From the IMG/VR virus record IMGVR_UViG_2660238078_000006: a DNA stretch of 11,065 nucleotides; one strand, given 5' to 3'. Position 1 is the first letter of the stretch. Every line of letters begins with the position of its first letter. Shown piece after piece: positions 3,001 to 6,000 of the stretch. Origin of the DNA: a virus (Duplodnaviria > Heunggongvirae > Uroviricota > Caudoviricetes). A program made the position numbers.

Positions 3001-6000
3001 AGTAATTACATTATGTGTTTTCATTTATATTAAAGGAAATTGGCAAATGAAAGTGTTTGCCACCCTTCCAATACTTATTGTCGCATTTTCTATGGCAAAA
3101 CCTCAACTGGCAGATTCTGTTCCTCAACTGCCAACACTTGCAACCGGAAACGGGTCAAGGTATTTTGTAAATATTCATATTGCAATTTTTTCATTAATAT
3201 GCGTTTGTTTGTTTCAATGCATAAAGAATAAAACCTTAAAAATATTCTTTAAAATCTATGTTTCAGTCATCCTTATTGCAATGATAAAATTAAACTTTTT
3301 TATAACCCCTCTTCCTGACATGAACTGGTCTCAAGGAGCAGAATTAATAAATAAAGCAAAACATGGAGAAGCCGTCTCATTTACAGTGCTCCCTCCATGG
3401 TTAACTCTTGATTTAATAAAAAAATAAAACTTCACATTAATAAATAACAATGAATCCGCCTCCCTACGTATTCCCGTAGGGAGGCTGTCGTGTTTATAGT
3501 AGCCTGGTAATGCTAAATGCAAACGAACTGGAGATTCCTGCTCCGCTAAGCGTATTGCGCAGGGTCACCCTAAATGTATCTACGCCAATATAAGTAACAT
3601 CACAACTAACTGAATCAGGCGCAGATATAGGTGTTATCTGCACAATATAACCGCTAGCAACTGCTGCGAGCGGATGAGAAAAGCTAACCTCATACACACC
3701 TGTAGCAACCACGTTAACCGATGAAACACCAGTAGCAACGTCGATACTACCATTGGCGTTAATTTTTCCCGAGCGTGTGACTGACAATGCAGAAGCCGAT
3801 GTTGCCTTACTGGTTGTTTCTGTAAAAACACACCCAATGTCAACTACCTCGCAATTAGCTCCTGTTATCCAGTATGGTCGATCTGCACTTGGCTGATAAT
3901 CCCCTGCGCTCTGGAACGTTGTGCCGTTGAGTATGACTGTAACTTTTCCCCCACCTGAGCTTGTTACTTGAATATTAGTGTGCGTGTATCTTGCACTGCT
4001 CACGCGATGAAAATTTCCACCGTTTATAACCACAGTTACAGGGCGCGTCCCAGTATTATCTATAGCAAGGTCTGCCCCCCCGGCATTAGCCTCAAAGTAT
4101 GGGTTGTTTAATACCAAAGCGCACGAACCGTTAAGGCCATTTATGGCTAATTGCGCACCACCTGTACTGGAATCCCCCTGAGTACCATTTCCTTCACAAG
4201 TCAGGCTATTGATAGTTGTACCAGCACCCCAGCGGTCCCCGAGGATACCCCATTCACTGTTCTGACTGCACGTAAGCCTATTTGCAGTTATAGCGTTCAG
4301 TTCAGAATGATTTACGGAGTTGGTAGCACGCCAACCGATACGATTACTCTGCAAGTACACGTTCGTCATGTCGCTCGTGAGCATCGAGTCAGTGCGTAAC
4401 CCTTCCCCGTCAGGGTGGCGGCAGATAACAATGTTTTCAAGACGAGTATGTGCTTTATTCTGCACCAGCATACCGTAACTTCCGGGATTCCCTTTCAGCG
4501 TCATGTTGCCGATGTAGTCATATGCAGCCAATCTCTGACTGTTAAACGCTGCGTCACCTAGCATTTTTACGTTAAAATCAGTAGCTCTACATTCCAGTAT
4601 TGTCTCAGCCATGTTCTCGCCTGAGTAAAAACAGCGGACACCCGGAGCACCTACAAAGTCGGCAGGGTAATCATCATAATTAAGTACCAGAGGAGTGGTA
4701 ACATCATACACCCCTTGCTTTATTTTTAATGTTCCACCGAAAGGCCACGATGTAAGCGGGTCTTGATATATTTCATTTTTTATTGCAAATAGCTCATCTT
4801 GAAGATTTTTCCCGCTATTAGTGCCAATGTAAGTAGCCCCTTCATCAGATTGAAGTAACTGCAGAAGCTGTTCAGGGTCATACTTCAGCAAATTCGGAAA
4901 ATAGAACTGTTGCGAACCATACGCATCATATACAGCCATTGAATGGCCTTGCTCAGTTACAAATTTGGCAATCTGCCCGTTATATACCGGATAACCAGCA
5001 GCGTTAATGATGATTGGTTGAGAAACAGGAACGTGATAACCATCTTCGTTCTCCACATAAACCTGAATCTGGTTTTCAGGATTTACAGGGTCAGTGTCAA
5101 TTTTACCAATATAAATTTTACCATTGGCTACGGCTTTAAAAGAACGAGCCATAGTGAATAGTTGCGAAGGCATGCTTACCACAACATTGGCATTTATTGA
5201 ATCTGTCATTTTAATTTCTCTATATGTTAAGCAAGCAATATTCATTGCTAGCATGTTTTTTGTATAATGAGTGAACTTTATTTAAAGGTGGTTAACATGA
5301 ACTGGAACGAAGTATTCGTATTAAAAGACGATGGACTCCTGTACTGGAGTGACCAATATCTCTCAAGACCCAAAATGTTCAATATCTCTAAAGAAAAGCC
5401 TGCAGGACATATATTCAAGGACAAGAACAGGAAAACATCTTATATAATTATCAGGTATCAAGATAAAATATACGCCGCTCATAGGATAATATGGGAAATG
5501 TTTTATGGTGAAATCCCTTCAGGAATGCAAATTGACCATAAAGATGGTAATGGGTTAAATAATTCAATAGACAACCTGCGTCTAGTTAGTCTCGGTGAAA
5601 ACCTAAAAAACAAATCTAAATACACAAACAATACATCTGGGTGCGCAGGTGTTTCATGGCATAAGACCCATAAAAAGTGGGTGGCATATATTAGCGACGC
5701 AGGGAAGCGCATTAATCTCGGATACTTTAAGAGTCTCGATGATGCAATTGCTGTAAGGCGTGAGGCTGAAAAGACCTATGGTTATCATGAGAATCATGGT
5801 AGGTGATATCTGACATTTCATTGCTCCAGACGAATGATATGATGCAACCATGATGTGATTGCATACCGAAATGGTACTATTGAGTATTTATCCAGTAGGT
5901 TACGATGCCATTCCACCCAACTGGTGAGGCATCAAGGATGTACAGCAAATACGACGAGGCGCAGTTTCACTTGAGACTTCCGCATGAACTCCACGCGAAA

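Follow-up and report, generated by a model that had tools for sequence, protein, structure and literature searches.

Modular tailspike of the Shigella flexneri phage SfX: a P22/Sf6-type head-binding domain joined to a receptor module of a different family

We analyzed a stretch of 11,065 nucleotides from a Caudoviricetes genome (IMG/VR record IMGVR_UViG_2660238078_000006; the window hereafter) with a focus on its tailspike gene (Table 1). This gene occupies exactly the interval that a first-pass annotation of the DNA had proposed, and it lies on the minus strand, where an open reading frame (ORF) runs from an ATG at 5207-5209 to a TAA at 3494-3496 and codes for 571 amino acids. The plus-strand reading of the same interval was rejected because its frame is full of stops. 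A longer ORF that begins at an upstream ATG at 5254 was rejected as well: every homologue starts with MTD or MSD, and therefore we take 5209 as the true start. NCBI lists an identical protein as 'phage head-binding domain-containing protein [Shigella]', and the identical 571-residue tailspike is present on at least 24 contigs by one count and on at least 33 Shigella contigs by another. PHROG 17420 ('tail protein') matches the product over its full length (1e-295, covering residues 7-570).

The window belongs to a phage that already has a name. Positions 2156-3883 match the glucosyltransferase (gtrX) record of Shigella phage SfX (GenBank L05001) with 100% identity, and this record also includes the last 390 bases of the present tailspike gene, unannotated there. 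Judged by this sequence identity, the tailspike is that of the Shigella flexneri serotype-converting podophage SfX or of an SfX-type prophage. The first-pass annotation had missed that this phage has a name and a published sequence, and that the modular structure of its tailspike has been described. The P22-like podophage SfX can be induced, and it changes serotype Y into serotype X (PMC3306764, PMC3636060, PMC3851460). The window runs from the 3' end of int through an attP-like tRNA remnant to the plus-strand genes gtrA-gtrB-gtrX; a hairpin separates these from the minus-strand tailspike gene, which is followed by a gene for an HNH endonuclease, an mnt-like gene and ejection genes. The gtrA-gtrB-gtrX genes stand immediately downstream of the tailspike and are convergent with it; on the upstream side of the tailspike lie gp16-, gp20- and gp7-like ejection genes, a DUF2824 (gp14-like) gene and the Mnt-like repressor gene. 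This order agrees with that of P22, where ejection genes, an immI-like mnt gene, the tailspike and a terminator are followed by convergent gtrCBA-attP-int, and a virion and ejection module that adjoins the conversion and int region marks the window as P22-like (Lederbergvirus-type).

Table 1. Features of the tailspike gene and its downstream neighbors in the window.
Feature	Position	Strand	Basis
Complete tailspike coding sequence, SfX-type phage	3494..5209	-	571 codons + TAA; ORF, translation
P22/Sf6-type head-binding (virion attachment) domain, codons 1-115	4865..5209	-	Pfam PF09008, P22/Sf6 identity, PDB matches
Module junction, codons 114-116 (Q-L-L), after KYDPEQ	4862..4870	-	megablast, nucleotide alignment
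Short helical neck/linker, codons 116-158, start of the receptor module common to Sf11 gp13 and Sf101	4736..4864	-	predicted helices, Sf11 match
Right-handed parallel beta-helix, codons 159-460, predicted O-antigen binding/cleaving domain	3830..4735	-	model
C-terminal beta-sandwich, codons 461-571 (core strands 479-569)	3497..3829	-	AlphaFold2, pLDDT about 85-94
Candidate active-site residues E339 (4193-4195), E373 (4091-4093), D380 (4070-4072)	4070..4195	-	conservation; codons checked
R402, same stack as the candidate residues	4004-4006	-	conservation, DSSP
gtrA 873-1235, gtrB 1232-2149, gtrX 2162-3427	873..3427	+	Pfam GtrA_DPMS_TM, Glycos_transf_2; L05001 identity
GC-rich hairpin with a perfect stem of 11 bp, separating the stops of gtrX and the tailspike gene (convergent)	3458..3485		terminator scan + sequence

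We also considered that the gene might be decaying and non-functional, left behind in a defective prophage. Its 90% cluster includes many partial proteins (176-333 amino acids, on short contigs or in complete genomes), which suggests that SfX-type prophages in S. flexneri are frequently disrupted by insertion sequences (IS), and on another contig the neighboring HNH gene is shortened or interrupted next to an IS1 transposase fragment. The ORF in the window, in contrast, is intact, of full length and retains all conserved residues, and its product recurs unchanged on the contigs counted above. Moreover, strain 2002017 yields SfX by induction, and this phage is infectious (PMC3306764). A functionless remnant is hardly credible in the face of these observations.

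The N-terminal part of the protein is a head-binding domain of the P22/Sf6 type. P22 gp9 matches residues 1-114 with 83 of 114 identities (73%, E = 4e-49, BLASTP), and all other segments give E > 1. Sf6 gp14 matches residues 1-126 with 86% identity and nothing past residue 126 (BLASTP). The sole Pfam match in the protein is Head_binding (PF09008; residues 4-114, E = 1.2e-62), a domain homologous to P22 gp9 residues 1 to about 110, and a phmmer search matched residues 1 to about 127 with the head-binding domains in PDB entries 7sg7 (Sf6), 1lkt, 8tvr and 2xc1 (P22). On the DNA level, about 96% identity to Sf6, IME10 and 683R2 breaks off at window positions 4859-4868 (megablast; 4864 for Sf6). 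A nucleotide alignment with Sf6 places the end of homology right after codon 114, at about 4865, where the conserved motif KYDP(E/D)Q ends. The record of phage CUS-3 carries an annotated 'boundary sequence' at the equivalent place. From these alignments we conclude that recombination at the conserved KYDP(E/D)Q motif has brought two modules together.

The first-pass annotation had described a domain swap, in which about 115 residues similar to P22 gp9 are followed by a part without similarity to P22. This description holds in all its elements: the P22/Sf6-type domain ends at KYDP(E/D)Q, and the module behind it occurs elsewhere on other adaptors (see below). We looked for an alignment of the C-terminal part to the P22 tailspike and for signs that the N-terminal similarity is false, and found neither. 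That such spikes are modular, that their junction is conserved and that they are coupled to serotype-conversion genes is textbook knowledge.

No Pfam or NCBIfam family covers the receptor module (residues 116-571); PF27114 and PF13229 were seen only on its distant relatives. Over its full length the module is homologous to a family that comprises SfX, Sf101 and Sf11 gp13 (PHROG 17420). Sf11 gp13 (PDB 9OCC chain G) is 72% identical from residue 121 to the C-terminus (E = 5e-217), and the spikes of the E. coli prophages in strains PapM-32-1 and G3/10 are 81% and 78% identical in this module. We surveyed the architectures in which the module occurs in a collection of 5.8 billion proteins. It sits behind PF09008, behind PF18668 alone (siphophage Sf11), behind the T7-tail-fibre N-terminus (PF03906) with PF18668 (metagenomic proteins) or behind unassigned N-termini. 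An exhaustive HMMER scan returned 352 representatives at 50% clustering, of which 59 scored below 1e-30. The receptor-module family is real but modest in size, and podo-, sipho- and T7-like phages exchange it.

One of the closest known counterparts is Sf101 gp15 (YP_009153089), which shares both the domain order and the module family with SfX (77% identical overall; the head-binding domains share 93% and the receptor modules 75% of their residues). Like SfX, Sf101 is a P22-like S. flexneri podophage that infects serotype Y and carries an O-antigen-modifying gene directly downstream of, and convergent with, its tailspike. Unlike SfX, it plates on serotype 1a, and its downstream gene is an O-acetyltransferase instead of gtrABX. 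The Sf101 gene (NC_027398, 4001-5743) also differs by a perfect tandem duplication of 30 nucleotides, or ten residues (KNLQEELFAI twice), in the neck around codons 134-153. The paper on Sf101 noted an N-terminus shared with SfX and grouped SfX with phages of 'very limited homology' in the C-terminus (PMC4159516). For SfX, the full-length identity of 77% that we find at the sequence level contradicts this statement.

Sf11 gp13 resembles the SfX spike in the receptor module and differs from it in the attachment part: a helical adaptor with PF18668 docks on the siphophage distal tail protein, and there is no head-binding domain. The Sf11 paper, published in 2025, reports that infection depends on O-antigen; it calls the spike 'Sf6-like' and mentions neither SfX nor Sf101 (PMC12724387). 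We found no significant sequence similarity of the Sf11-type module to the Sf6 beta-helix by BLASTP, and the profile match is marginal. More specifically, hhalign aligned Sf6 with a 53-sequence profile of the C-terminal family at 76% probability over Sf6 residues 66-325 only, which correspond to the neck and the first rungs. The probability for P22 gp9 against the same profile was 0.1%. Foldseek comparison of a structural model (described below) with 2vbm gave 11% identity and a TM score of about 0.28, and global matches to Sf6 and P22 reached a TM score of 0.34 or less, driven by the common N-terminal domain. Homology to the receptor domain of Sf6 gp14 (residues ~110-623, including the catalytic residues) was not found. 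These comparisons place the SfX spike outside the receptor-domain families of both Sf6 and P22. Sf6 gp14 (an endorhamnosidase; PDB 2VBK/2VBM, 7SG7) nevertheless shares with SfX the host species, the overall tailspike design and presumably the O-antigen backbone as receptor, in addition to the head-binding domain with its 96% DNA identity up to the junction. P22 gp9, likewise an endorhamnosidase, shares the head-binding domain and the locus layout; its receptor domain has no detectable homology, and its receptor is the Salmonella O-antigen.

The receptor module also varies internally (window 3650-4730, codons ~161-520). Across codons 161-340, DNA identity to Sf101, PapM-32-1, G3/10 and Sf11 is only 52-73%; across codons 361-440, the identity to the prophage gene of PapM-32-1 is 92-95%. 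In the flanks (codons 141-160 and 541-560) SfX shares 98-100% of its bases with the three P22-like genes (Sf101, PapM-32-1 and G3/10), and the last 30 codons show 98-100% identity to the genes of Sf101 and the E. coli prophages. The beta-helix core of Sf101 (codons 161-520) is only 53-78% DNA-identical to that of SfX. Because identity changes in patches along the module, we regard the module itself as recombinant. Its distinctive first half (codons 161-340) is a candidate for what sets the host ranges of SfX and Sf101 apart.

The composition and predicted structure of the C-terminal part agree with the first-pass annotation, which had called it rich in Ser, Thr, Gly and Asn and had expected a beta-helix. 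These four residues make up 37% of positions 116-571 and 23.5% of positions 1-115. An AlphaFold2 monomer model built on a 37-sequence alignment reached a pLDDT of about 85-97 over most of residues 150-571; the N-terminus was poorly modeled because the alignment mixes different adaptors. The model predicts a helical neck (112-157), about nine rungs of three strands each (159 to about 460) and a C-terminal beta-sandwich (479-569). The predicted neck helices span residues 112-119, 124-127, 136-147 and 151-157 and have lower pLDDT. In the model the rungs form a right-handed parallel beta-helix, as in the receptor domains of P22-like tailspikes, and the C-terminal beta-sandwich probably stabilizes a trimer. 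By analogy to its homologues (Sf6 in 7sg7/7ukj; Sf11 gp13 in PMC12724387), the spike would be homotrimeric, like P22-like tailspikes in general, of which a virion carries six trimers.

The same model, together with conservation, points to a candidate active site. E339 (in the motif CEGNG), E373 (YFEAN) and D380 (GADLAIDN) are invariant among the close relatives in the 37-sequence alignment. In the 53-sequence alignment of relatives with 25-59% identity these three residues are at least 90% conserved, and R402 is invariant. According to DSSP analysis of the model, E339, E373 and R402 each terminate the third strand of three successive rungs, and therefore these residues are expected to stack on one face of the helix. 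The catalytic pairs of the tailspikes from P22, Sf6 and HK620 are spaced by about 33 residues, and the 34-residue spacing of E339 and E373 resembles this arrangement. Tailspikes of the endorhamnosidase type depend for hydrolysis on two or three carboxylates on the beta-helix, and E339, E373 and D380 would be the putative catalytic centre of the SfX spike.

The O-antigen backbone of S. flexneri consists of three rhamnoses and one GlcNAc and contains no uronic acid. A lyase mechanism was rejected on these chemical grounds, and hydrolysis is far likelier for the same reason. Accordingly, we propose that the receptor module is an endoglycosidase, most likely an endorhamnosidase. The module might instead bind O-antigen without cleaving it, as a pure adhesin like some non-enzymatic beta-helix fibres. 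We consider this unlikely since E339, E373 and D380 are kept in relatives down to 25% identity, and since the closest structural matches of the model are depolymerases. To our knowledge, every characterized P22-like O-antigen tailspike (P22, Sf6, HK620) is an endoglycosidase.

The receptor of this module can be narrowed down by the hosts of the phages that carry it. Sf101 (PMC4159516) and Sf11 (PMC12724387) both infect S. flexneri serotype Y. Sf11 does not plate on waaC, waaG or waaL mutants and hence requires complete lipopolysaccharide with O-antigen, and OmpA, OmpC, OmpF and enterobacterial common antigen (ECA) are dispensable for its infection (PMC12724387). SfX plates on serotype Y and on none of 18 serotype 1a strains (PMC3306764), and plating of Sf101 succeeds on serotypes Y, 1a, 1b and 3b and fails on X (PMC4159516).

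Among complete E. coli genomes, PapM-32-1 and G3/10 are the only two with near-full-length DNA homologues of the tailspike gene. Both contain wzx and wzy of the O13/O129/O135 family, rfbBDAC and rhamnosyltransferase genes, a cluster that corresponds in E. coli to the O-antigen cluster of S. flexneri. The O-type of PapM-32-1 was read from the annotated rfb locus, as the strain's paper does not state the serotype. An O-antigen-modifying gene adjoins both prophage spikes (gtrABC-like in PapM-32-1, an acyltransferase in G3/10). In G3/10 (NZ_CP060075.1, 21588-24761) the O13/O129/O135 cluster contains frameshifts in rfbG, wzy and a gtrA-family gene as well as an IS5-truncated glycosyltransferase. 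This probiotic-associated strain has probably become rough, but it still carries a P22-like prophage with a spike that would target this O-antigen. Taken together, the host data indirectly support recognition of the S. flexneri-type O-antigen backbone by the module.

These data also bear on the idea that the module modifies the O-antigen as an esterase or deacetylase, or targets another glycan such as capsule, colanic acid or ECA, without hydrolysis of the backbone. Esterases do occur among the tailspikes of Shigella and E. coli phages, as in the literature on Moo19/B2 (PMC11654681) and on the esterase tailspike of G7C, and colanic-acid degradation figures in the annotation of one PHROG with a match to the N-terminal domain. 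However, this PHROG covers residues 2-136 only, which is the head-binding part, and the predicted fold is a beta-helix instead of an SGNH esterase. The common host serotype Y bears an unmodified backbone, and the O13/O129/O135 cluster is common to the E. coli strains that carry homologous spikes. Furthermore, Sf11 requires waaL but not wecC or wecD (PMC12724387). Modification of the O-antigen, or a glycan other than O-antigen, is thus very improbable.

The first-pass annotation had also suggested that the spike might recognize, and perhaps cleave, an O-antigen different from that of P22 and that the adjacent gtr cassette modifies this same receptor after lysogeny. The suggestions on the receptor and on its modification are supported: the spike is that of an S. 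flexneri phage, its same-module relatives infect serotype Y or reside in O13/O129/O135 hosts, gtrA, gtrB and gtrX adjoin the tailspike, SfX converts serotype Y to X (PMC3306764), and Sf101 fails to plate on serotype X (PMC4159516). This failure is consistent with GtrX masking the receptor, and SfX itself is presumably excluded by GtrX as well.

We propose the following mode of action for the SfX spike. Residues 1-115 would dock the trimer onto the tail hub of the P22-like virion, by homology with Sf6 and P22. The beta-helix of the module (residues ~116-571) would then bind the S. flexneri-type backbone, which is shared with E. coli O13/O129/O135, and hydrolysis of this backbone by an endoglycosidase activity, with E339, E373 and D380 on adjacent rungs as putative catalytic centre, would let the virion work its way down to the outer membrane. 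After lysogeny, the gtrA-gtrB-gtrX operon would glucosylate the unmodified O-antigen (Y to X) and thereby mask the receptor. We assign a probability of roughly 0.85 to this reading as a whole, that is, to a modular SfX spike that combines P22/Sf6-type attachment with a module of a different family that binds, and most probably hydrolyzes, S. flexneri-type O-antigen.

Several points weigh against this assignment. The conserved acidic residues could serve binding instead of catalysis, and a monomer model cannot place the site within one subunit or between subunits. Enzymatic activity has been demonstrated for no member of the receptor-module family, and we found no enzymology of the SfX, Sf101 or Sf11 spikes in the literature, where a survey of E. 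coli tailspike modularity (PMC10408124) mentions none of these three phages. PDB entry 9OCC models only residues 4-59 of Sf11 gp13, and the family has no solved beta-helix structure. The association with an E. coli O-antigen rests on two genomes, and a feature other than the tailspike may be what keeps SfX from plating on serotype 1a.

The HNH endonuclease gene next to the tailspike (5267-5806, plus strand) codes for a free-standing protein with HNH_3 and AP2 domains and lies directly upstream of the tailspike start in divergent orientation. It is not found at this position in Sf101 or in the PapM-32-1 and G3/10 prophages, and relative to Sf101 it corresponds to an insertion at about 5212-5801. 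An HNH endonuclease is annotated beside the tailspike in 13 of the 15 E. coli genomes listed, and those tailspikes resemble the SfX spike only in the head-binding part. Among the sequenced phages in the collection we found no homologue of the HNH protein with more than 60% identity. A homing-type endonuclease that adjoins a tailspike recombination hotspot might promote the exchange of modules. Farther upstream, an ORF at 5905-6198 (plus strand), between the ejection genes and the tailspike, codes for a 97-residue ribbon-helix-helix repressor of the Arc/Mnt type (Pfam Arc and Repressor_Mnt) and is 98% identical in DNA to the gene in Sf101. No ant or arc partner occurs within the window, and hence the immI region is reduced relative to that of P22.

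On the downstream side of the tailspike, T-rich tails flank the hairpin on both strands, and the records of P22 and Sf6 show a terminator at the equivalent position; the hairpin is likely a bidirectional terminator. The DNA 3' of the tailspike stop, including this hairpin, aligns with Sf101 despite the different conversion gene (oac-type) of that phage. Between the 3' end of int and gtrA (523-873) lies an attP-like segment with the 3' part of a tRNA gene (ggtgccgataataggagtcgaacctacgaccttcgcattacgaat), in which ARAGORN found no complete tRNA. The order int-att-gtrA implies a junction of the phage form (or of a tandem lysogen) instead of a prophage end beside host genes. On one other contig with this tailspike int lies just beyond the gtr genes, and contig JAQRWA010000050.1 (GCA_028647615.1) shows the full order from gtrA to int. 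In this last contig the identical tailspike is followed, after a gap of 210 nucleotides past the stop, by a call of 373 amino acids (6209-7330) in place of the 421-residue GtrX, which may represent a shortened or otherwise altered gtrX.

The range of Shigella serotypes open to a phage depends on the receptor module of its tailspike. Such modules and the conversion genes gtr and oac jointly shape the emergence of S. flexneri serotypes, which bears on O-antigen-based vaccines and phage therapy. The present results leave the established picture of modular tailspikes unchanged. Their added value is modest: the spikes of SfX, Sf101 and Sf11 fall into one receptor-module family distinct from that of Sf6, the occurrence of this module in E. 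coli follows that of the S. flexneri-type O-antigen (O13/O129/O135), and there are now concrete candidates for the catalytic residues. A bolder possibility, to which we give somewhat less than even odds, is that the SfX/Sf101/Sf11 module represents a second family of S. flexneri O-antigen depolymerases that is independent in evolution of the Sf6 endorhamnosidase, with an active site of its own (E339/E373/D380), possibly a different target linkage and a serotype range set by codons 161-340. If true, the module would be a cassette that can be swapped across podo-, sipho- and T7-like phages and would be useful for Shigella serotype diagnostics or phage engineering.

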